Virus record (IMG/VR): IMGVR_UViG_3300021426_000069
Length of the DNA stretch: 64,000 bases
Strand: one strand, 5' to 3'
Source of the DNA: an uncultured virus (IMG/VR IMGVR_UViG_3300021426_000069)
Lineage: Duplodnaviria > Heunggongvirae > Uroviricota > Caudoviricetes
The translations under genes were made by a program, and so were the position numbers. Positions 3,386 through 29,481 of this stretch are shown here, one piece after another (position 1 is the first letter of the stretch; each line of letters opens with the position of its first letter). Below the pieces are notes generated by a model, which was not told the origin of the DNA, did no database searches, and saw only the letters and a program-made list of their open reading frames with translations.

Positions 3386-3552
3386 AACAATCACCCTTCC
3401 CTTTCATAAGAATTTTTATTATTTTTTCATTTTCTATATATATTATAACATATTTTTTTAAAAATGTCAATAGATTTTTAACCTATTTTTTAAAAAAGTC
3501 GGTGCGGAAATGGGTTGAAAAGAAAAAGAGGGATCTAGCCCCTCATATTATC

Positions 3553-3915
3553 TTAGTCAGCGTTTACTGAGAAGTAAGATTTTTTCTTGTCGATAGTCTT
3601 AACTATTCTACCAGCATTTACTAACATTCTTAATAATGCAGATAATTTTTGGTTTGAGTAGTTAGCCATATCTTCATTTGCTTCTTGTAACTCAGTAACA
3701 GTTACAGGTTTAGCAACAGCAACTAATGCTTCATATACTCCTTCTACTAAAACTTCATTTTCTTTTTGAGTTTTTGTTTTAGTGTTTGATTTCTTTGATA
3801 ACAATTCAACTTGTCTGTCGATGAATTTTATGATTTCATCTCTGTTATCAACATTAACTCCTTCTACGATTTTTTTGATTTCTCCAAAATATTCTTTTTT
3901 AGTCATTTTTTCCAT
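3553..3915 (-). CDS. winged-helix-like DNA-binding protein (paralogue of 25180..25545)
   Basis: N-terminal helices plus C-terminal wHTH-like segment (TVTELQ...SNQKLSALLRMLVNAGRI). Confidence 0.6.
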   Translation of the reverse strand: MEKMTKKEYFGEIKKIVEGVNVDNRDEIIKFIDRQVELLSKKSNTKTKTQKENEVLVEGVYEALVAVAKPVTVTELQEANEDMANYSNQKLSALLRMLVNAGRIVKTIDKKKSYFSVNAD

Positions 3916-4409
3916 TTCTCCTCAATTCCTTTCTTTATATATATTTTTACGAGTGGGTTTAAGTCAACTCGCGGTAACTACGCCCTCTTATATAGCGTCG
4001 GTCGCTCTACGCTTTCTATATTATCGTTTAGGGATAAGGTCTATATCAAACCCCTAAACGGTTATTAGGTTAAAACCGTTTCGCCACTAATAAGACCTTT
4101 TCAGGAAGAAACTTTATCGGCCTCGTCACCAAGTATTCTTGGTAGGTTGGTTCAACTATTTTTCTTTCTTTCTATATATATTATATAATAATTTTTAATT
4201 ATTATCAAATAATCTTTTAAGAATTGGCTGATATATTTCGCTACTCAGTAGCTCAGTATATACTTAACTCCTTCTACCAACAGTGAGTACCAAACCATAT
4301 ATTTATCTTTTTCTTAACTTTTCTATATATATTATATTATATTTTTTATAAAAAATCAAATTATTTTTGAGTACTCAGTAAAATAATTTTTTAGTATATT
4401 TTTTGAGAT

Positions 4410-9706: not shown

Positions 9707-11221
9707 CTACTCATTTATATATACAACTTTATTATATCTTTCAGCTTGAAGCACTTCTAACATTAATTGTTCCCCTGTTTTACCAGTCATAACGCTCTTA
9801 AAGATTATTGGTGAGCATCCACTTACGTAAGATACATCCCAGCCTAAATCTAAAATACGATTATTTCTAGCATTTACATTCCAATAAACTAATTTTGGAA
9901 GTCTTAGCCCAGATAAAGCCCATTGTTCTCTGATTTTTTCCATTTCAGTTAGAGTTTCTTGTTCAGATCTCCAATAACTTCCTCTGTCGATCTCCATATC
10001 AGAGATTACAACAATTGTTTCAGGAATATCAGATTTTGGTATATCATGCCCTAAGATTGTTGATTTTAGTAATTCAAAGACTGCGGAAAGGTCAGTATTG
10101 TCGCATAAGTCTTGTTTATAAATTCTTTGTACTTTATCTACAAAATCTACTCCTTCAACTTTTATAAATTGTGGTCTGCTAGCAAAACTAATAAAATAGT
10201 TTTTAAATGGCTCCCCAATTCTTTCTGCACAATACATTCCAAGTGAAATTGCAACATCAATAGGTCTAACAGATCTGCTTGAGCAAGTCATAGATCCAGA
10301 TGTATCTACAACACACATCATTTTACATTTTTTACCTTCTAGATAATCGTTTTGATTATCCCAGTATTTTTGTAAAGTTGCTCTTTCAGTTTCTGTCATA
10401 TTTATTCCATAGTAAGACATTTTATCAGTTACCTTCTTAACTATCTCATATGGGAATAATGATTTAGCATTTACTTTATTGGCTTTATTTGCCATGAATT
10501 CTGCATATTTGTCTTCAATTATATCTTTGTGAGCAAAAGTATTACTATATTGTAAACCTGCTTTAGAAGGTAGTTTATCAAATTCAATTTCTTCCCATCT
10601 ATTTTCAGACATTAATTTCTCAACAATATTAATTCTAGTTCTCAATGCGGCAAGCATTTTTCTATATTCTTTATGGGACATACCTAGATGTTCTCTAGTT
10701 TTATTTCCAAGTTCTTTAGTTTCAACAGATGAAGCATTTTCACTTTTAATCCATTTAGCTAATAAAGATACTCCTGTATTTTCACTGTTTGCTAAACTTG
10801 TGATGTCTGCTTGTAATTGTTTTTCCATAAAGTCGAACATAGCTAATTCAGCAGGAGTCCCTACTAAACAATATAAATCATCATATCGACCATATTCAGC
10901 AATATTAGAGATATTTGCAATAGCAATTTGTGGATACTCTTTTGCTAACCAATGGAAGCATACACGGAAAAATCTTCTTTCTCCTTGTCCACCCCTAATA
11001 TCACGAAGATAGAATAAGCATTTTAAAGCTAATTCTGGGTTTTCTTCAAACGCATTTTTAAATAATAATATACAATCATTATCTTCACGCATTCTATATG
11101 CTCCACCAAAAGCGAACATATCATATAATGCGGAAAGCGTCGATTTATGAGCTAAAGCTCCGTTCTCAGTTTCTTCAAAATTTGTGGTTTCTAATAAACC
11201 CTCTACTAATTTATTATTCAT
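9707..11221 (-). CDS. DUF2828 family protein (TROVE/Ro60-like helical domain + C-terminal vWA domain)
   Basis: TENGA, RDIRGGQGER, EYGRYDD, LAKW motifs; vWA MIDAS DTSGSM, T and ISDMEID; VYWNV. Confidence 0.85.
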   Translation of the reverse strand: MNNKLVEGLLETTNFEETENGALAHKSTLSALYDMFAFGGAYRMREDNDCILLFKNAFEENPELALKCLFYLRDIRGGQGERRFFRVCFHWLAKEYPQIAIANISNIAEYGRYDDLYCLVGTPAELAMFDFMEKQLQADITSLANSENTGVSLLAKWIKSENASSVETKELGNKTREHLGMSHKEYRKMLAALRTRINIVEKLMSENRWEEIEFDKLPSKAGLQYSNTFAHKDIIEDKYAEFMANKANKVNAKSLFPYEIVKKVTDKMSYYGINMTETERATLQKYWDNQNDYLEGKKCKMMCVVDTSGSMTCSSRSVRPIDVAISLGMYCAERIGEPFKNYFISFASRPQFIKVEGVDFVDKVQRIYKQDLCDNTDLSAVFELLKSTILGHDIPKSDIPETIVVISDMEIDRGSYWRSEQETLTEMEKIREQWALSGLRLPKLVYWNVNARNNRILDLGWDVSYVSGCSPIIFKSVMTGKTGEQLMLEVLQAERYNKVVYINE

Positions 11222-12623: not shown

Positions 12624-13046
12624 TTACCACCATAAGTCGCAAAAGTATTTAGCATATAATCTTAACCCAAATCTTATTTGTTTCCATCTATTTTTTGATG
12701 CTTTCATTCTTTCTTCTTGTGATATAGTATAATCAAACTCTTCATCTACAAGAATTAATTCAAAAGCCTTAATCATTGCATCTATATAATGTTTCCATTG
12801 TTCAAATGATATGTTAGGTGGATAACAATGTAGACAGTGATCGCGGAAATAGCATAGATAAGAATAATTTATCATAGCAAGAGTAGTGTTTAAATTCCAC
12901 GCATCAGCCTCTATAAAACCATCTTCATCTGGTTGGTATCTTGGGTCAAAATCTTTTGCTTCATCATTGTATGCCCAATATTTATCTTCAGTAATACCTA
13001 TATTTTTTAGATATTTATTAAAACCTATTTTATGCATCATATACAA
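12624..13046 (-). CDS. hypothetical phage protein
   Basis: 140-aa ORF ending ...YAKYFCDLWW, AAGGAGG RBS. Confidence 0.75.
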   Translation of the reverse strand: MYMMHKIGFNKYLKNIGITEDKYWAYNDEAKDFDPRYQPDEDGFIEADAWNLNTTLAMINYSYLCYFRDHCLHCYPPNISFEQWKHYIDAMIKAFELILVDEEFDYTISQEERMKASKNRWKQIRFGLRLYAKYFCDLWW

Positions 13047-13317
13047 TCCCTCCTTAGAATAATTATTAGGTGGCGGAGATGGTAAACAATTTAATTAAAA
13101 TTGCATCTGCCTGACCAGTACCATCTCTGAAATCCATATGCATTGTACTTCTTTTTAAACATATTTTTAATCCACCTTAATGCGTTTTAGTCAGGATAGA
13201 AGCCACGCATTATTTATTATAAGTTTGGAAAAAATCAAATATATATTAAAGGGGCCACTCGCGTCCCACCGTCCTGTTTCATACGCCTAAGCCTTGTCCG
13301 CCCCTTAAATATCAAAA

Positions 13318-13392
13318 TGGCTGCCGGGGTTGGATTCGAACCAACGCATCCATGAGTCAAAGTCATGTGTCTTACCGCTTGACTACCCGGCA
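13318..13392 (-). tRNA. tRNA-Gln(UUG)
   Basis: Canonical cloverleaf, CCA. Confidence 0.95.
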
Positions 13393-13395
13393 ATA

Positions 13396-13470
13396 TGGCA
13401 GGGGAACTAGGACTCGAACCTAGATCAACGGTTTTGGAGACCGCTATGCTAGCCATTACACCATTCCCCT
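13396..13470 (-). tRNA. tRNA-Trp(CCA)
   Basis: Canonical cloverleaf, CCA. Confidence 0.95.
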
Positions 13471-13773
13471 AAATACACGACTTAATTAATGATGACGCAT
13501 TAATAAGTCTATTCTTTTGATTTAACCTATCTCTAGTCCATACCTTAGCTTACAAGGTAAATGAATCTCGCATTCATTCATCACGAACGGATACTTCCCA
13601 TTGATTAATAAGGCTGATAGTACCAAACAACCTTAGATACAACTATTTGTCATATAGACCTATACATATCAAGTCTAGGATTTTAGGGATGGAGGTTTAA
13701 AAATAAACCCTCGCCTCCACCACTTATTTTCTAAAAAATAAGAAACATCTATAACATATAATTATATTCATTA

Positions 13774-13849
13774 TGGCGGTGCCTACGGGACTTGAACCCG
13801 TGATCTCCTGCGTGACAGGCAGGCGTGATAACCACTACACCAAGGCACC
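13774..13849 (-). tRNA. tRNA-Asp(GUC)
   Basis: Canonical cloverleaf, CCA. Confidence 0.95.
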
Positions 13850-14052
13850 ATTATGAACCCGAACTGTGGCTTCTTGTCCTTTGAGTCAGTCTATATCTCA
13901 GTCCTCACACGTTTCAAGGTCGACTAAATAGACTTGGATACTGAGTTAGGTTCAAAAAATTATTAAGGATTTCGCCCGAGACATATTACTCCCGTCAACG
14001 GATCAGCATTTCTTTATATTATGGACGCTTCACTCCCCGTTGTGTTTTCAGA

Positions 14053-14207
14053 TAGGGATATGCCAATGAATGTTTTATAATGCGCGGGCGCCAGAGTTCT
14101 ATCGAGGAAAGTCACTGGACTAGCCTTTACCTTTTGTTGAACGTCACCTCGATTGCTAGTTGTATAGTTCAACATATCATTATAAAGCACTCATTGCCAT
14201 ATCTCTA
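14053..14207 (-). ncRNA. 155-nt element: 30-bp imperfect terminal stem around a multiply pseudoknotted core
   Basis: 14053-14082 pairs with 14178-14207; three crossing internal helices of 8, 6 and 7 bp. Confidence 0.6.
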
Positions 14208-14219
14208 AAAATATATATA

Positions 14220-14387
14220 AAATCAGTTAGGACTCACACCTAAACCCTACCCCTCCACGGGGTAAGCTCTGGACAACATATGTATTTCTGCAGATGCGTA
14301 TGCTGGACTATAGGACTTTTATTGCCAACAGGCTCTGTTAGATTTTGAGCTCGCCTGAAGTTCCTCCTCATCTTAAGCTACTGATTT
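14220..14387 (-). ncRNA. tRNA-like RNA with ~105-nt structured D loop
   Basis: Acceptor AAAUCAG/CUGAUUU, U8-A9, D stem GCUU/GAGC, anticodon stem UACCC/GGGUA with 7-nt loop, T arm UUAGG-UGUGAGU-CCUAA. Confidence 0.65.
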
Positions 14388-14397
14388 ATTAACTAAT

Positions 14398-14474
14398 TGG
14401 TGACGCCGTCGGGATTCGAACCCGAGAGTGCTGCCGTGAAAGGGCAGTGTGTTAAGCCACTTCACCACGGCGCC
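14398..14474 (-). tRNA. tRNA-Glu(UUC)
   Basis: Canonical cloverleaf, CCA. Confidence 0.95.
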
Positions 14475-14505
14475 ATTTTAAAAGCACATTTATTCACCCG
14501 TGCTT

Positions 14506-15176
14506 AATAGGCTGGTTTTATGTTTGAGGACGAACATCACCACCGAACCATATTAAAACAAAAATCATTTGGTAGGACTTTTGCATACCTACAAGTCTTT
14601 TTCAAAATAACTGTGTATTCAGTCACAAGATAGGAATGATACCTATAAACTCGGCATAGACTGGAGTACTGTAATTCAGATATTTTGCCATCATCTTCCA
14701 AAATATCAGATAATCATTTATCCTTTTTAAAAGTGGTTTTCTTATATGCCCATATGCCAAACTGTTATACTTGGTTTAACCCAATTCAACCACCTAGAGC
14801 TCACTTCCTCTGCAGTTCTCCCGCTTACGTCCTGGCACGGATCGTATCGAGGCATGCTCCCAGTCGCATACAACTTTCTCTACACTCACTATATTTTCGC
14901 CTGCTCACTTAAGTTCAACAACCTTTTTTCCTTTTTTCATAGGCTATGACCACAGCCACTTACAGCGTCTACTGTTCTTAGTGTACATATCCCTAAGGAA
15001 TATGGAAATACTTCTACCAGCGTATTTCAATAATATAATGAATAGATATAAAGCTACTATACACTTAATCGTTGGCCGACGACTAAGTCTTACTGTATAG
15101 AGAGGATTTTTTATACCTCCAACATATAAGGTTCTTCTTGCCATTTACTACAACGGATTTATGCCTGTTGCCTACT
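14506..15176 (-). ncRNA. ROOL-like large non-coding RNA (~670 nt)
   Basis: Blocks resembling ROOL as I recall it, in order: AAGACUUAGU, GAAAUACGCUGGUAGAA, ACAGUAGA...AAGUGGC, AUAGGUAU...CCUAU..UGUGACUGAAUA, CUUGUAGGUAUGCAAAAGUCCUAC; terminal pairing AGUAGGC/GCCUAUU; tRNA-cluster context. Confidence 0.65.
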
Positions 15177-15189
15177 GCTTTCTTATTTC

Positions 15190-15595
15190 AACCGCTAAGG
15201 TTCTGCCATCTGTTTGTTTGCGACGCCAACTCGCACATAACATTGAACCACGAAATCAGTAGCACCTTACACTCGCTATTTCGACAACCCCTTTCCCTCG
15301 TTGCTCTCAACTATTGACGAACCTTTTGAGTCCGTGTAAAAGGGTACTCTTAGAACGAAACCTATTCTTTTTTGAGTTACAAATAATTTTTTTCAAAGAA
15401 CTAATGTCGACCCAACCCATACAAACGGTCTTCAGGAGAGCCTTTGGTCCCTAGCCCATACTCACCACCCCCTGAGGGATAAGTATAGGATACTCTCGTT
15501 TCCACTTAATATAATCTTACTACACAACTTATATACTTTATTCGTAGTTGCCAAACGAATGTGGTTTATAAGGCTTTTCCCACTGCCAAACTTTA
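15190..15595 (-). ncRNA. ~400-nt structured RNA between promoter and ROOL-like RNA
   Basis: ORF-free, GC-enriched, many hairpins (AUACUUAUC/GGUGAGUAU, CCUUUU/AAAAGG, UGCGA/UCGCA, UUCGU/ACGAA). Confidence 0.55.
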
Positions 15596-15658
15596 TTTTT
15601 TCTTAACTTTTCTATATATATTATATAATATTTTTTAAAACTATCAAATATTCTTAAT

Positions 15659-15733
15659 TGGAGCGGGTAGCCGGATTCGAACCGGCATTATCAGCTTGGA
15701 AGGCTGAAGTCCTAGCCCTTAAACGATACCCGC
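15659..15733 (-). tRNA. tRNA-Gly(UCC)
   Basis: Canonical cloverleaf, U73, CCA. Confidence 0.95.
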
Positions 15734-15985
15734 ATACGGTGGTGTGTTTCTTTATAAGTAAAGAACACTCCGTAAGAAACCTACTAATTGTTTAACAATA
15801 GTGTTGTAACCCCTGTTTTAACTAGCTTTCTGCACTCAACTCTGACCTTGCTAGATGGTAAGTCCTAGCGCCCCGAGCAATTGGTGGCACTTACTTTTTC
15901 CAAGTATGTTGTTTTTCACAACTTTCTTAACCTTACATATATATTATATTATAATTTTTTGAAAAAATCAATTTAAGAAGTATAA

Positions 15986-16148
15986 TGGCAAGCCGTTGGA
16001 TAATATTGTGACTTAGGTCAAGGAGATTTTCTCCGTGAATTACACTCCGTTACCAGATATGCACTTTCGTTTCAAAATTCAGGTATGCGGTTGCCCTACA
16101 TACGCCTTGATTACCACTTAGTTCACACTCTAATTCCAACGAGTTTAC
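15986..16148 (-). ncRNA. ~160-nt rod-like RNA ending in GCCA
   Basis: Nested end-to-end helices CGUUGGA/UCCAACG, UGUGA/UCACA, UCAAGG/CCUUGA. Confidence 0.5.
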
Positions 16149-16184
16149 GCCCTAGAAGTTTTCCTTGCAATAATTTGCTTGTGA

Positions 16185-16481
16185 CTAGGATAACGCGCCA
16201 TCAATAGCGATGTCATCAGGATAGTCTGATTTGATGTCCTTTAACATATTTAACATTTGTCTTAATATCTTTTCAGTATATTGTCCGTCTTTTTTCACTT
16301 TTATATCTAGGACACCATTAACATCTGTTGAGTCAATAGTATCTTCAATAAGTTCTATATAATTAATAGTAGCTATTGACAGTGCGGAAACCGCTGCACA
16401 GACGTTATTGTCGCGACAATGTCCTGTAAAAGTGATTTCTTTTATTAAATTATTTTCTTCAATAACTTGTACATTAACCAT
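16185..16481 (-). CDS. prp: ribosomal-processing cysteine protease Prp (DUF464)
   Basis: TGH....VCAAVS His-Cys dyad motif and C-terminal I...YP..I. Confidence 0.85.
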   Translation of the reverse strand: MVNVQVIEENNLIKEITFTGHCRDNNVCAAVSALSIATINYIELIEDTIDSTDVNGVLDIKVKKDGQYTEKILRQMLNMLKDIKSDYPDDIAIDGALS

Positions 16482-16504: not shown

Positions 16505-17521
16505 CTAATACCAGCCTTTGCTTTGAGAATTAGCCCAAGCTGCTGATGGTGAACCATATCTACCTTTTATGTATTTAAGTCCCCATCTAATTTGAGTATA
16601 ACCATTTGTATAATAATCTGCTCCCTCGCTCGCCATTTTAGAAGCGGGTAGTGATTGCGGAATTCCATGTGCTCCAGATGAACTGTTATGTGAGTTAGGA
16701 TCCCAACCAGATTCTCTATTCCATAGTTTAACTAAACACTCAAAATCGTATTCAGACCATCCATATGTGTTAATTACTAAATCTTTTGCATATGCTTGAT
16801 AGTCAGATAAACTATACGATCCAGAGCTACTGCTTTGGGCAGTCGTTGTGGATTGCTCTTTTTCGCGTCTAGCTTTCTCTTCAGCTGCTTTTCTTGCTCT
16901 TTCTTTCGCCTCAGCTTCAGCTCTTAATCTCGCTTGCTCGGCTTCATATGCTTCTTTTTTCATACTTATTATATTAAATAAATCTTCTTCTTTTGTTTCT
17001 TGGTAAATAATTTTCTTAGTTGTTTCAATTGTGTATTCTTGACTATCATATTCGTTTATTTTATGAATAAAATCTTCACATTCACTATTATTTTTAAATA
17101 AATAATCATTTCCATCAATTTGAACCTTGTAATAAGTTGCATAAAAATCATATCTTGATATGATTGTTTCTTTAATCCTATCTTCTATATTCCCTCGACT
17201 TGTTACATTTACATTTCGTCTTGGAACATTATTTTTTTCTACGGTTTCTACAATTTTATTTAACTCATACGTTACATTTTCATATCCCTTTGCCTCGATT
17301 GTCTTCACGTGGTCGTCTAAAACTTGTTTCTCAAGACTTATTCCTTTAGCTTGGACAATGACATTGGCATTTTCAGTTTTTATATCAATGCAAGTTCTTA
17401 TGATAAAAACAGAAAATATACTTATCAATATAGCTAAAAGTAAACCAATGACCTTTCCATTTTTAAAAATCTTCCTTATTAATCCCTTAAGGGAGGGAAG
17501 TTTTCCTTTTAGATTTGTCAT
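16505..17521 (-). CDS. membrane-anchored lytic transglycosylase (SLT-type)
   Basis: N-terminal TM helix, coiled coil, C-terminal CL..LWNRESGW...SGAHGIPQ...QI.WGL.YI..RYG. Confidence 0.85.
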   Translation of the reverse strand: MTNLKGKLPSLKGLIRKIFKNGKVIGLLLAILISIFSVFIIRTCIDIKTENANVIVQAKGISLEKQVLDDHVKTIEAKGYENVTYELNKIVETVEKNNVPRRNVNVTSRGNIEDRIKETIISRYDFYATYYKVQIDGNDYLFKNNSECEDFIHKINEYDSQEYTIETTKKIIYQETKEEDLFNIISMKKEAYEAEQARLRAEAEAKERARKAAEEKARREKEQSTTTAQSSSSGSYSLSDYQAYAKDLVINTYGWSEYDFECLVKLWNRESGWDPNSHNSSSGAHGIPQSLPASKMASEGADYYTNGYTQIRWGLKYIKGRYGSPSAAWANSQSKGWY

Positions 17522-18147: not shown

Positions 18148-18235
18148 TGGTGGGAGCGGAGGGACTCGAACCCTCACGGGATTAACTCCCAACGGATTTT
18201 AAGTCCGTTGCGTCTACCTATTCCGCCACGCTCCC
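18148..18235 (-). tRNA. tRNA-Leu(UAA)
   Basis: Cloverleaf with variable arm, CCA. Confidence 0.95.
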
Positions 18236-18278
18236 AAATGGTGCCGGCTGTAGGACTTGAACCCACAACCTACTGATT

Positions 18279-18597
18279 CATTACTACATTGATTTCTCAT
18301 TGTAGTCTGGACTTTCTCTTCTCCATATCTTTTAACTTAGGAGTTCCGTATAAAGTCTCTACACTCGAAGAATTAATCTTCTAGCTCGGGATTGTCATAA
18401 AGAGAATATTTTTTTCTATCTTTTCTACCCAAAGTTTATGTTGATAATCAGCTTGACACTTATTATTACAATATTTTCTAGTTTTTAAGATTTCTTTTCC
18501 ACAATTAAGACAGTTCATAACTAATCTTCTCTCCTTAGATTTCCCCGAATTAGCGGAATTTTTCAATACAAGTTTCCTTGTAAAGTTGCAATTTTTT
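18279..18597 (-). mobile_element. group I intron (319 nt) in tRNA-Thr anticodon loop
   Basis: 5' exon ends in U, intron ends in G; core P AAUUCGGGGAA, Q AAUCCCGAGC, R GUAGAGACUUUA, S AAGAGAAAGUCC. Confidence 0.9.
18381..18518 (-). pseudogene. truncated intron-encoded homing endonuclease (zinc-finger remnant, 45 aa)
   Basis: AAGGAG RBS, MNCLNCGK...KYCNNKCQ; no nuclease domain follows. Confidence 0.65.
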
Positions 18598-18751
18598 ACA
18601 AGTCAGTTGCTCTACCATTTGAGCTAAGCCGGCATAAAGTGGAGAACTTGCCTAATTTATATTGCGGTATTCAGCCTTCTCCATCCCTGGTCCCGCTAAC
18701 ATCAATAGATTTCTCTATGATAGGACTTATCTACCTCTAGGGCAGTAAGTA

Positions 18752-19087
18752 TTAGTCAATAGTATCATATAAAGATTTTAATTGACCATCTGTATATTCT
18801 AGGGCTTTAGAATATGAGTCTATTTCTTTATTGCATCTAGTAGCAAAGTTAATCCAACTACTTTCATTATATGCTAATGTTTTTTCATATTCTCTCTTGA
18901 AGAACTTATACATTTTCTTTTGTGCTTTTAGTAATGCTATTTCATATCCTAATTTTTCATCAAAAGTGTCTTCTTCCATACACCAACTTTGCCCTTTGAA
19001 CTTATGACCAAATTCATCGAATAAGAATACGATAACTGTTCTTTTTTCTTCATTTTTGTAAACTTTTTCATTTACTACTTTAACCAT
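18752..19087 (-). CDS. hypothetical phage protein
   Basis: G.S.C..ED.FDE..G..IA motif, also seen in weaker form in 31426..31836. Confidence 0.7.
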   Translation of the reverse strand: MVKVVNEKVYKNEEKRTVIVFLFDEFGHKFKGQSWCMEEDTFDEKLGYEIALLKAQKKMYKFFKREYEKTLAYNESSWINFATRCNKEIDSYSKALEYTDGQLKSLYDTID

Positions 19088-19104
19088 AAACTAAAGTCCT
19101 TTCA

Positions 19105-19855
19105 TTCAAAGTTTGTAGGTCTGGGCTACCTACTTGGGATTTTTCAGTGTTAATACCACGGGACTCCTACACTCTCATACGAGAGAAACCTCCGCCCATT
19201 ATTAACTGGGAACCTCCATCGAGGAAAGCAGTCCTTTTACCCCTTTTTATTCTCACAGCTATCGATGAAAGCCATTTCCTAGTCGTTCCTAAGGATGTCA
19301 GCACTTCGGACCATCTTTCATTATTATAGGATCTATTGTTAGGCTGTGGTGAGCTTTTATCTCGAACACTCTCACTAACGATTTGTGCTTTAATTAGCAC
19401 TATTCTAACGATATAACTAGTATGACCTTTAATGGCGGGCAGGGTAGGTAAAACTCGAGTCCCTGCTCTAGGGTATATCATTAGAATACTACTAATTAAA
19501 GATAGTGGATTGCCCTTTCCTGTGCTTGAGTGTAAAGGGTTAGTTGTCTCCGGGGTATTCAAGGCACCCCCAGCCTACACATCCACTCTGTGCTTTTGAC
19601 AATAGTCAACACTAATTAAAGTAACTCCCTAGGCGTTCTTTAATCATAAGGTTTCATTTCCTCTCGCAAGAGGTTTATAAAGATTTAATAAGTTTTTACT
19701 ATTCCTTCAGTTCACAGTTAAGCAATAGCTAAGCGACTGTCTATCTCTTTCACCATAGCGGCGGTGAGGTTCTCTTACGCCCAAATCCTCACTAAACGGT
19801 GTGGTCTATTTGCCAGAAAAACTTTAACTTGGCGTGCGTGACACAGCCCGCACAT
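19105..19855 (-). ncRNA. large (~750 nt) highly structured non-coding RNA, family unknown
   Basis: Own promoter (19928-19956); many helices including UAUUCUAAUGAUAUA/UAUAUCGUUAGAAUA, AGUGGAU/AUCCACU, GUGAGG/CCUCAC, UAGGCUG/CAGCCUA. Confidence 0.7.
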
Positions 19856-20124
19856 TTTTTCTTATTCTATTTTCTATTTCCTAAATCTATATGAATAAAA
19901 ATTATTATCTTTTCAATTTACATATATATTATATAATAATTTTTAATAAAAATCAACATAAGGGTTTGATTCCCATTAGATAATGATAAATCAAACCGAA
20001 GATATATATAAACGGGCGCAATGCCCAGTTAAAAAGGAAATATTCTATTTTTTTAGTCCTGATGACAAAGCGAAAACAGAATAAGAAAACTTTAATCTAT
20101 ATATACTTGATATATCTTACTTAA

Positions 20125-20216
20125 TGGCGGTGGTTGAAGGGCTCGAACCTTCGCGCCGAATAAATCGACCTAAGAGTTTAGCAAACTCTCCTCTTCACCA
20201 ACTTGAGTAAACCACC
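20125..20216 (-). tRNA. tRNA-Ser(GCU)
   Basis: Cloverleaf with long variable arm, CCA. Confidence 0.95.
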
Positions 20217-20285
20217 AAATATAGTGTGCTTACTTTATTTTCAAAAATATTATATCAAAATTATTAAAAATTGTCAAATTTATTA

Positions 20286-20360
20286 TGGGGTAAGATAAGG
20301 GTATCGATCCCCTACCTCCAGTGCCACAAACTAGCGTGCTACCATTACACCAATCTCACC
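20286..20360 (-). tRNA. tRNA-His(GUG) with encoded G-1
   Basis: 8-bp acceptor GGUGAGAU/AUCUUACC + CCA; T loop AUCGAUA. Confidence 0.9.
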
Positions 20361-21419: not shown

Positions 21420-21488
21420 AGCCGTAAATTGGATTTGAACCAATATTGCTAATATTTCTATTAGTGTTTTCCATTAAACTATTACGAC
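21420..21488 (-). ncRNA. tRNA-like RNA with GAAA tetraloop replacing the anticodon loop
   Basis: Acceptor GUCGUAA/UUACGGC, D arm GUUU/AAAC, CUAAUA-GAAA-UAUUAG, T arm AUUGG-UUCAAAU-CCAAU; no CCA. Confidence 0.7.
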
Positions 21489-23621: not shown

Positions 23622-24010
23622 ACTAAAATCTCCTTTCGTAAAAAACAACTTTGACGCACAAACATAATTTATATGGAAAAGGTTCTTTACCTTTTTCATA
23701 CTTATATTATATCATTATTTTTTACAAAAGTCAAACTTTACTCTGTAACAAGAGTGCACTCAACTACAATAAATCTGTTTTTTAAATATTGTAAATAAGG
23801 TAGGTGCGTTACTGTAGCAAGGTGTTTTCTACCCTCGTCATCAATATACATTACTCTATAATAAGGTGGTTTAATAACCTCAGTTTCGTCATCATAATAA
23901 TCTTTGTTTTCCATATATAATTCCTCCTTTATTTACATTATTATTATATAATATTTTTTCAAAAAAATCAAATTAAAAATAGGCGGAAATGCCGCCTACT
24001 TTTATTAAAA

Positions 24011-28218: not shown

Positions 28219-29481
28219 ATGTTAAATCCAAAAACAAAACAAAGAGAACTTGCTTACACTGTTAAAATTGATGATATACTTCCAATAGAAGGTTCAGATA
28301 ATTGTGAATGTGCGGTAGTAGGTGGATGGCATGTAATGACTAGAAAAGGTACTTTTAAACCAGGCGATATAGCTGTTTATTTTGAAATAGATAGTAAATT
28401 ACCTGAAAGACAATGGTCAGAGTTTCTAGCTTCTAAACATTATAAAATAAAAACTCAAAAATATACTTTTGGAGGAAAAGGAAACTTTGTATCTCAAGGT
28501 TTACTTATGGCTCTTGGAGATTTTTGTGAAAATGGAGGAACACTTGCTTGCATTGCCGCAATTCAAATGGGTTGGAATGTAGCTAAGCTACATGAACTAC
28601 CAGGTGATGAATATATAAATATTCCATTAACTGATGAACTTGGAGTTATTTATTCTGTCATAGAAGATAATAAAAGAAAATCTAATGCTGATAAATATAG
28701 TAGAATGTATCAAAGACACATAAAATTATTTAAAAAGCATAAATTATTAAGAACTCTATATAAATATACTTGGGGTAAAAAATTCTTATTTATCTTCTTA
28801 GGAAAGAAAAGAGATGGAAGAAGCTGGCCTGCATGGGTAGTTAAAACAGATGAAGAAAGAGTTCAAAATATGCCATTCTTATTCCCTGGTAACCCAGAAA
28901 AAGAATGGATGGTAACAGAAAAAATTGATGGAACTTCAACAACATTTACTATGAAAAGACTAAAAAGAAATAAGTATGACTTTTATGTATGTTCAAGAAA
29001 TGTATGTTTTGATAAACCTGATAAAAAATGTTATTATGAAACAAATGTTTATACTGAAATGGCAGAAAAATACAATGCCGAAGAAGTTTTAAAAAACATT
29101 TTAGATACTCATAAAGAATTTGAATTTGTAACAATTCAAGGAGAAACTTATGGTAAGAGTGTTCAAAATAGAGATTATAGCATAGACTATGTTGATTTTG
29201 CAGCATTTAACTTAATATTTGGATACAAAGATGGAGCAACAAAAAGATTAAATCCAAGAGAAATGACTGAAATATTAGTAAATACATATAATATTCCTTG
29301 TGTTCCAATATTAGACGAACATTTCATTTTACCAGAAACTTGTGATGAAATGGTTGCATATGCAGATGGCATATCGCAACTAGATGGAGAAATGAGAGAA
29401 GGAGTTGTATTAAGAACTCTAGATGGTAGAGAAAGTTTTAAAGCTGTATCTAACGAATTCTTAATTAAATACCATCAATAG
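28219..29481 (+). CDS. RNA ligase (Rnl2 / DRB0094-like) with N-terminal OB domain
   Basis: TEKIDG motif I, SRN, QGETYG, FAAFN, EGVV, FKAVS. Confidence 0.9.
   Translation: MLNPKTKQRELAYTVKIDDILPIEGSDNCECAVVGGWHVMTRKGTFKPGDIAVYFEIDSKLPERQWSEFLASKHYKIKTQKYTFGGKGNFVSQGLLMALGDFCENGGTLACIAAIQMGWNVAKLHELPGDEYINIPLTDELGVIYSVIEDNKRKSNADKYSRMYQRHIKLFKKHKLLRTLYKYTWGKKFLFIFLGKKRDGRSWPAWVVKTDEERVQNMPFLFPGNPEKEWMVTEKIDGTSTTFTMKRLKRNKYDFYVCSRNVCFDKPDKKCYYETNVYTEMAEKYNAEEVLKNILDTHKEFEFVTIQGETYGKSVQNRDYSIDYVDFAAFNLIFGYKDGATKRLNPREMTEILVNTYNIPCVPILDEHFILPETCDEMVAYADGISQLDGEMREGVVLRTLDGRESFKAVSNEFLIKYHQ

Follow-up and report, generated by a model that had tools for sequence, protein, structure and literature searches.

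Does the tRNA array of an uncultured phage harbour a further example of those large, intricately folded RNAs of unknown function which are rare, and of which every new class up to now has opened new ground in structural biology, as with the cages and dimers formed by GOLLD, ROOL and OLE? And, if so, where does this RNA begin and end? The question is raised by positions 19105 to 19855 of a stretch of 64,000 nucleotides from IMG/VR record IMGVR_UViG_3300021426_000069 (Caudoviricetes), the whole of which we call here the window. An initial annotation, made from the letters alone, had proposed that these ~750 nucleotides encode, on the minus strand, a single densely structured RNA with its own promoter, perhaps the founder of a new class.

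We find a real and new family of non-coding phage RNAs, but a narrower and more modular one than proposed. The idea of one conserved class of ~750 nt has to be given up, since only a 5' domain of ~172 nt, which we call domain A, is common to all relatives; nor does the RNA end at 19105, since homologous leader modules pick up again past an embedded gene (ORF111, for open reading frame of 111 codons) and reach a tRNA-Thr gene with anticodon UGU. In our best reading the unit is a leader transcript of ~1.2 kb, running from the promoter to this tRNA-Thr(UGU) (18633), and the flagged stretch is its 5' two-thirds. Its order is domain A, W1, H, S, W2, ORF111, M3, G and tRNA-Thr(UGU) (Table 1). Of the flagged 750 nt, ~320 nt (A, H and S) are conserved beyond the lineage of the window and ~440 nt (W1 and W2) are lineage-specific. 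A non-coding structured RNA on the minus strand is thus what we see as well, with support from covariation confined to A, H and S.

A conserved and pseudoknotted 5' domain

Relatives were collected by scanning IMG/VR, JGI metagenomes and GTDB genomes for neighbouring proteins and for patterns; they are designated below by locus numbers (L002 and so on). GenBank phages gave no match to 19050-19900 (blastn, distant mode), and record G001, the nearest to the window, is without the RNA. Near-identical copies (97.7-98.6% identity) are found in L002/L012/L016, L014, L017 and L019, whereas the more divergent phages (L003/L010, L018, L015, L008, L011, L013, L009, L024, L046, L047 and L049, the latter from a metagenome-assembled genome, or MAG, labelled uncultured Bacilli) are alike only over the first ~170 nt, at 80-93% identity. 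Between phages domain A reaches 85-93% identity, a high level of conservation given that their transglycosylase proteins, encoded next to A, are only 48-55% identical. A covariance model of the domain (CM R1) has exactly one strong match in each of 13 loci and finds one copy in four of the five whole viral records searched, the fifth, a 19-kb fragment, being without it; in 120 relatives of the L049 MAG it found none, save one match of 22.6 bits that we took as noise.

Domain A comprises six helices (P1 to P6) and at least four pairings of the pseudoknot type (PK). Its 5' GUGCG is one strand of the covarying helix P1 (GUGAG, GUGUG or GAGGA in relatives), a hairpin whose 10-nt loop is almost invariant; GUGU in this loop pairs with a downstream ACAC (PK1), and in L024 and L047 both sides have switched, to GUCU/AGAC. 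A second hairpin, P2, has a loop that pairs with the 3' tail (PK2), closing the domain; the first pair of PK2 is A-U in six sequences and U-A in seven. P3 is capped by a C-GUAA-G loop, P4 bears a nearly invariant 17-nt loop in which GCUAUU can pair with AAUAGU (PK3, with G-U, A-U or G-C as its end pair), and P5 and P6 together form a compact H-type pseudoknot.

This structure was curated by hand, because RNAalifold, run on A alone, missed P2, P4 and P6 (it also proposed helices that are broken in L024). When the 13 sequences are aligned to CM R1, pairing is possible in 97.9% of the 572 cells defined by the 44 proposed pairs, a figure scored on the same sequences from which the structure was derived. 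Both sides have changed in 18 of these 44 pairs, versus 1-4 when the partners are slid along the alignment; none of 500 shuffles matched the observed pairing, the number of both-side-changed pairs or cells, or the covariation score, and a count made with nine sequences agrees with that made with 13. Homologues thus collected, as had been suggested for a check on the initial annotation, show covarying pairs in A and, as described below, in H and S.

A mosaic leader

Behind domain A the leader is a mosaic. Its modules, defined by an all-against-all comparison of the leaders, recur between lineages and have conserved loops and covarying stems. The features of the unit are collected in Table 1.

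Table 1. Features of the leader unit in the window, from promoter to tRNA (window coordinates)
Feature	Position	Strand	Remarks
Promoter-like site TTGATT-17-TATAAT, sigma-70-like	19928..19956	-	directly behind a terminator-like hairpin of the upstream unit (20027-20013)
Domain A, pseudoknotted core, ~172-174 nt	19683..19856	-	CM R1 210.7 bits; common to all relatives
W1, lineage-specific, ~181 nt	19502..19682	-	homologue only in L002-type relatives; fold z -1.2
H, long hairpin, 114 nt	19388..19501	-	inverted repeat; homologues in other lineages with compensatory changes
S, hairpin GUGAG-(17-nt conserved loop)-CUCAC, 42 nt	19348..19389	-	common to window and L047
W2, lineage-specific, 260 nt	19088..19347	-	ends at the ribosome-binding site of ORF111; fold z +0.9
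ORF111, 111-aa ORFan gene embedded in the leader	18752..19087	-	AAAGGA 8 nt upstream of ATG
M3, leader module	18696..18752	-	86% identity to L003; 88% over 34 nt to L053/L054
G, leader module (GCGGGACCAG...CUGAAUACCGCAAUAUAAAUUAGG)	18642..18696	-	just upstream of the tRNA; recurs in other lineages
tRNA-Thr(UGU), split	18239..18633	-	by eye and by comparison with the intact tRNA-Thr of L002

The clearest of the variable pieces is H, present in five lineages (window, L003, L018, L047 and L049). Its two 28-nt arms (19501-19474 and 19415-19388) form, on the minus strand, 25 Watson-Crick pairs, two G-U pairs and one conserved G-G mismatch, with 0 such matches expected in shuffles, and its 58-nt interior holds an inner hairpin that covaries. 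Because the G-U pairs of H would be C-A on the plus strand, the RNA is assigned to the minus strand; the distal 15 pairs, which include one G-U, are the 15-bp helix from which the strand had been called at the outset, and rightly so. When W1, H, S and W2 were compared with five whole viral records, the arms of H were the only match. Hairpin S reads GUCAG..CUGAC in L047, compensatory with respect to GUGAG..CUCAC in the window.

Beyond the lineage of the window no homologue of W1 or W2 was found, either among the leaders compared or in the five whole viral records, and an exact 26-mer from W1 had 0 matches in an IMG/VR scan. The second half of W1 is a 109-nt module, folding as a three-way junction, that lies between 11-nt direct repeats (CUUUAAUUAGU, at 19621-19611 and 19501-19491) having a single complement at 19397-19388. 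One compensatory double change (GG..CC to AA..UU) distinguishes W1 of the window from that of L002. The two copies of CUUUAAUUAG which had been thought to compete for one partner are indeed both there, but they are lineage-only: the second repeat copy is absent from L003-type leaders and one copy is already mutated in L002. As the repeats surround the 109-nt module, the "competing" copies look more like the scar of its insertion than like a conserved switch. These direct repeats hint at an insertion footprint, and at a way in which cassettes move between leaders.

W2 may be a mere 5' untranslated region (UTR) of ORF111. The latter has only two close homologues (88-92% identity) and a weak match to the Pfam family Phage_gp49_66 (24.8 bits, under the cut-off of 27). 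Homology with L003, lost behind the 3' arm of H, is found again from the last codons of ORF111 onwards, so that the leader continues, via M3 and G, to the tRNA at 18633; W1, W2 and ORF111 would be an accretion specific to this lineage.

The remaining modules are distributed in the same patchy manner: M3 in the window, L003, L053 and L054, G in the window, L046, L047, L051, L053 and L054, and modules C, T, D, E and F in other lineages. Their order is variable as well, G following A directly in L046 and L047 and standing after ORF111, before the tRNA, in the window. In L051, L053 and L054, leaders made of G, M3, C and D precede a tRNA-Thr, and A is absent within 1.5 kb. Among the loci compared the modules are confined to tRNA-Thr leaders, with the exception of E, also found downstream of the tRNA in L049.

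Folding energy adds little to this picture. The whole flagged region has z-scores of -2.2 on the minus and -2.4 on the plus strand (20 shuffles each), which is modest and equal on both strands, and no sub-region is special (A, z +0.1; W1 and W2 in Table 1). Energy being weak evidence, it is covariation that testifies to structure, for A, H and S only. The description "densely structured", with its many helices, thus holds for the long inverted repeat and for the covarying A, H and S, but not for the region at large, the energy of which is only modestly beyond shuffles. The long-range pair UAGGCUG/CAGCCUA is within chance: complements of 7 nt are expected ~17 times by chance in 750 nt (750^2/2/4^7).

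It had also been said that the region has no credible open reading frame. It is indeed non-coding, but a frame of 131 codons does exist (19562-19167, minus strand, TTG start), open in the window, L002 and L017. That it encodes a protein we find hardly credible: it starts with TTG, has no match in PHROG or Pfam, is broken by a 1-nt deletion in L014, differs at five amino-acid positions among close relatives whose DNA is ~98% identical, and overlaps H and S, whose stems covary.

A constant tRNA-Thr(UGU) neighbour

The first tRNA downstream of A has the anticodon UGU in all 12 lineages for which downstream sequence is available; ten of these tRNAs are ARAGORN calls and two (window and L018) were read by eye as genes split by an insert. 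The genes upstream of A vary from phage to phage. In L024, whose record has a completeness rating of 97%, A abuts the tRNA with a gap of 0 nt; most lineages have 300-570 nt here, and the window ~1050 nt. The arrangement is one that would allow a release by RNase P, the tRNA gene being 3' of A, on the same strand, and with no minus-strand terminator-like site in between. The UGU tRNA of L024 (reverse complement of 1548-1632) is itself unusual: at 85 nt, and with an extended variable arm, it has a type II body, where the other phages have a tRNA-Thr of 76 nt.

In the window the tRNA-Thr(UGU) gene is interrupted at its anticodon loop by 319 nt of inserted sequence (18595-18277), and because the gene is split it is missed by both ARAGORN and the Rfam tRNA model. 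The insert holds a 61-aa zinc-ribbon ORF (18566-18381; DUF2116, 25.2 bits, under the cut-off), and the Rfam intron models have no match there. A joined form of the tRNA, lacking 18277-18595, is present in contigs of two RNA libraries (X5 and X7), which could reflect splicing or relatives without the intron. Inserts bearing an ORF are also seen in the tRNA-Thr genes of L018 and L051. In L002, which is 98% identical, a tRNA-Leu(UAA) is apparently split (3395-4216) by an insert of ~750 nt, the ORF of which resembles HNH on inspection by eye; the tRNA-Leu(UAA) of the window (18148-18235) being intact, such inserts come and go between close relatives.

Just 3' of tRNAs is also the position at which HDV-like (hepatitis delta virus-like) "theta" ribozymes of gut phages have been reported, and weak matches to HDV-F-prausnitzii lie directly 3' of the tRNA-Thr in L009 (1025-1081, minus strand, 24.7 bits) and L018 (2601-2657, plus strand, 28.2 bits), the cut-off being 44. 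Two direct relations between A and the tRNA were considered and rejected. A does not look like a derivative of tRNA-Thr (common GCUUAGCU): the local score is 16, 128 of 500 shuffles do as well and three other tRNAs score higher. Similarly, a pairing of A with tRNA-Thr was equalled or surpassed by 39 of 500 shuffles.

Transcription

For the promoter of the initial annotation there is a promoter-like site, TTGATT-17-TATAAT, at 19956-19928 on the minus strand. Sites of this type occur again along the array at 23971, 22542, 21781 and 15971, and comparable ones can be recognised by eye just upstream of domain A in L003 and L024. No terminator-like site was seen on the minus strand between 19956 and 11332, including between A and the tRNA. 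The raised G+C content also proved correct, with 0.38-0.42 over 19000-19750 versus 0.25-0.33 in the coding flanks.

Fourteen runs recorded as RNA (eight studies; bovine, sheep or unspecified gut samples) contain 28-43% of the sampled words of 18200-20000, and the contigs of four RNA libraries from four studies cover 18637-19964. Those of X7 extend over 18637-19336 and 19522-19964, those of X6 over 18747-19387 and 19520-19843; the adjacent gene for a 344-aa protein is left uncovered altogether in X7, and over 16505-16906 in X6. Most of H (19424-19519) is thinly covered, which is uninformative because inverted repeats break assemblies. All this fits, without being a proof, an RNA that is transcribed and fairly abundant.

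Comparison with known RNAs

A scan with cmscan against all 4227 families of Rfam 15, GOLLD, ROOL, OLE and the introns included, gave no family match at E<=10 on 18500-20300. The GOLLD and ROOL models, which were the obvious candidates, have no match at the gathering threshold, at E<=10 on this interval, at E<=1 on six relatives or at E<=0.5 on five more, so that the RNA is a member of neither. There is a likeness to these families as described in PMC12286853: they too are phage-borne, in or beside tRNA arrays, large and multi-pseudoknotted, have a conserved and a variable part, and come from rumen and gut material. In GOLLD, according to the same source, the 3' part is conserved and the 5' part less so, with tRNAs in the linker. 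Here, by contrast, the conserved part comes first (5') and is only ~172 nt long, the variable part may be missing, and the RNA is tied to one particular tRNA.

Two other systems offer useful comparisons. The tRNA cluster of phage T4 encodes small stable RNAs (RNA C, RNA D, species 1 and 2) that are co-transcribed with the tRNAs and cut out by tRNA-processing enzymes. Compared with RNA C and RNA D by their description, A is likewise a non-tRNA RNA beside phage tRNAs, but it is more conserved and more knotted, and it heads its unit instead of lying between tRNAs. In eukaryotes, a cut by RNase P at a tRNA-like structure (mascRNA) sets the 3' end of the non-coding RNA MALAT1; in our case a tRNA directly 3' would set the end of the RNA in the same way, except that it is a genuine tRNA gene and that cleavage is only inferred.

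OLE RNA (RF01071) is also a large structured RNA of Bacillota-type hosts. It gave no row for 18500-20300 at E<=10, but its 3' half has a match elsewhere in the window (15989-16223, minus strand, 105 bits, model positions 280-595), 3.4 kb downstream of the flagged RNA. Such 3'-half matches are also found in the phage tRNA arrays of L009, L011, L013, L046 and L053 (100-108 bits overall, positions ~280-595). The start of the OLE-like half-RNA usually falls inside the end of a tRNA-Gly or tRNA-Asn gene or immediately behind it; L046 and L053 have leader, tRNA-Thr, tRNA-Gly and OLE-like RNA in this order. We found no description of phage-borne OLE half-RNAs in the literature.

Other identities were rejected. 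For a group I or group II intron, no family appears at E<=10 or E<=5, and the element starts at a promoter, without flanking exon halves. For a T-box leader, there is no Rfam row, the complementarity between A and tRNA-Thr is within shuffles, and L024 leaves no room for a platform. As for mimicry of ribosomal RNA (rRNA), two short motifs of the uL11-binding centre of 23S rRNA (loops of H43/H44), with <=3 mismatches allowed, gave 0 and 3 matches, none of them in the region and within chance. Comparison of the leader variants with 16S, 23S and 5S rRNA (blastn) gave 26.3 bits at best, equalled by 2 of 20 shuffles; the E. coli rRNA operon was used here, no 23S rRNA having been found in the L049 MAG. 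This best match is a 13-nt identity between module D and 16S rRNA, and since D has a covarying hairpin of its own, we rejected mimicry.

We regard the family as new: it has no match in Rfam 15 and we found no prior description in the literature. Four motif strings of A are not in six supplementary files of PMC10690425 (10,006 candidate viral RNAs), a search that left aside files 1, 2 and 4, of which 1 and 2 presumably contain the alignments and models, so that an anonymous partial entry for the family may exist there.

What could this RNA do?

The interpretation that we favour, without going so far as to call it probable, is that of a modular leader of a phage tRNA operon from which domain A, freed by RNase P, persists and acts in trans. 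The transcript would start at the promoter before A and run to tRNA-Thr(UGU), where host RNase P, by cutting the 5' end of the tRNA, would free the leader. A, with its 3' tail buried in PK2, could then persist as a compact, nuclease-resistant RNA standing on its own and act in trans during infection, resembling in this the other RNAs of phage tRNA islands. The modules behind A would be accessory and exchangeable structured pieces: H and S, then, past an inserted ORFan gene, M3 and G.

Several observations should restrain us here. With 13 sequences, from phages of rumen or gut that are related, the family is a small one, its structure has been derived from the very sequences on which it is scored, and the shuffle controls for A are inflated because these sequences are related to one another; moreover, the folding energy of A is no better than that of shuffles, and W1 and W2, beyond the one compensatory double change in W1, are without support as structured RNA. 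The constancy of the tRNA-Thr neighbour could be plain synteny among related phages. Finally, the RNA evidence consists of contigs only, which show neither strand, transcription start, RNase P cleavage nor stability; the runs were picked for containing this stretch, RNA libraries can carry DNA, and in two contigs the predicted start is overshot, on its upstream side, by 20-50 nt (X7, up to 19964, and X10, up to 19933).

One may ask whether the whole leader, instead of A, is the functional object, folding as a single large ornate RNA and perhaps as a multimeric particle like GOLLD and ROOL. A conserved and a variable region beside phage tRNAs do mirror the layout of GOLLD (PMC12286853), of which our variable part would be the variable half; its modules have covarying stems and conserved loops, and the contigs run unbroken from W2 via ORF111 towards the tRNA. 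We nevertheless think this unlikely, as L024 retains A alone, abutting the tRNA, module order varies (G after A in L046 and L047, after the ORF in the window), a protein gene sits inside the leader of the window lineage, and W1 and W2 belong to a single lineage and fold no better than shuffles, with UAGGCUG/CAGCCUA within chance. Alternatively, A could work only in cis, on its own transcript, as a 5' stabiliser against a 5'-3' exonuclease, as a scaffold for processing of the first tRNA, or as a modifier of RNA polymerase in the manner of put or EAR. It lies directly behind the promoter and ahead of the first tRNA of the unit, a varying distance to this tRNA is tolerated, its very high conservation fits binding to a conserved host machine, and the lack of any minus-strand terminator-like site over 19956-11332 possibly makes for a long untranslated operon. 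We are doubtful all the same: there is no expression platform and A touches the tRNA in L024, the array has several promoters of its own, A is single-copy and the other tRNA units do without it, L053 and L054 have the same tRNA-Thr behind a leader without A, and no leader or antitermination family of Rfam matches.

It is quite unlikely, in our opinion, that A goes further than in the favoured scheme and represents a new class of autonomous RNA (one that is catalytic, binds a ligand or a protein, or nucleates an assembly made of RNA only), attached to tRNA-Thr for its maturation. If this were true, the leader would be a natural RNA scaffold on which cassettes H, S, G, M3, C, D and E are shuffled as units, an RNA counterpart of the domain shuffling known from proteins. 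A last hypothesis, compatible with release of A by RNase P, concerns the variable part: S/W2 through ORF111 (~19384-18766) might be a mobile insertion into an older and shorter leader of the L003 type, either a free-standing gene of the homing type with its own UTR or a degenerate intron, in which case ~40% of the flagged region would have no function for the RNA. In its favour are the gap in homology to L003, from behind the 3' arm of H to the last codons of ORF111, the nature of ORF111 as an ORFan of the window lineage, the ORF-bearing inserts in neighbouring tRNA genes, and the 11-nt direct repeats that bracket the W1 module. We would give this hypothesis little credit in its present form, given that S, at the start of the putative insert, is also present in L047 without ORF111, that no intron family matches at E<=5, and that ORF111 has no match to a nuclease domain. 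For the time being, we thus retain the modular leader from which domain A would be released.

The phage and its tRNA array

The window belongs to the large, AT-rich genome of a rumen phage, which encodes a PolC-like polymerase, a topoisomerase II, an NAD-dependent ligase, NrdD and an RtcB-type RNA ligase. Its Prp-type protease is a hint that the host belongs to the Bacillota. The flagged RNA lies in an array on the minus strand that holds, from 11.7 to 23.2 kb, 24 tRNA genes and a gene for tmRNA (transfer-messenger RNA). This RNA-rich array is bracketed by the RtcB-type ligase (28219-29481, plus strand) and by a 504-aa protein (9707-11221, minus strand) that belongs to PHROG 850 ("RNA-binding protein") and matches Pfam DUF2828 and DUF7788, with a faint match to vWA; to judge from their annotation, the two look like a kit for RNA repair or quality control.

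A second part of the array deserves attention. The stretch 13850-15660 (minus strand), between tRNA-Asp, tRNA-Glu and tRNA-Gly, is without ORFs and has a G+C content of 0.39-0.44; its spacers measure ~550 and ~1180 nt, and 13046-16185 holds no ORF of >=90 aa. Further structured RNAs of the array are probably to be found here.

Two tRNA genes are peculiar. One, adjoining two tRNA-Met genes (21420-21488, minus strand), scores 49.9 bits with the Rfam tRNA model, but its loop is odd and ARAGORN gives it no anticodon (a 2-base "aa" in the window, a 4-base "gaaa" in L002). The other has the anticodon UCA (tRNA-SeC according to ARAGORN) and lies beside tRNA-Trp in L002 (8971-9066) and L003 (3319-3414); none was called in the window. 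Stop-codon recoding was considered and rejected, the ORFs of the first 11.5 kb (1-11.5 kb) being no longer under TGA=W and barely longer under TAG=Q.

Conclusion

Domain A is compact (~172 nt), highly conserved and multi-pseudoknotted, and its size suits both chemical probing and cryo-electron microscopy (cryo-EM). The leaders amount to a natural experiment in modularity, in which one and the same core is followed by 0 to ~1000 nt of exchangeable cassettes, and the strict tie to one tRNA provides a concrete handle on the maturation and the function of the RNA. More generally, the family adds to a growing picture in which the tRNA arrays of big phages from rumen and gut are operons that contain many RNAs other than tRNAs, in this case an OLE-like half-RNA among them.

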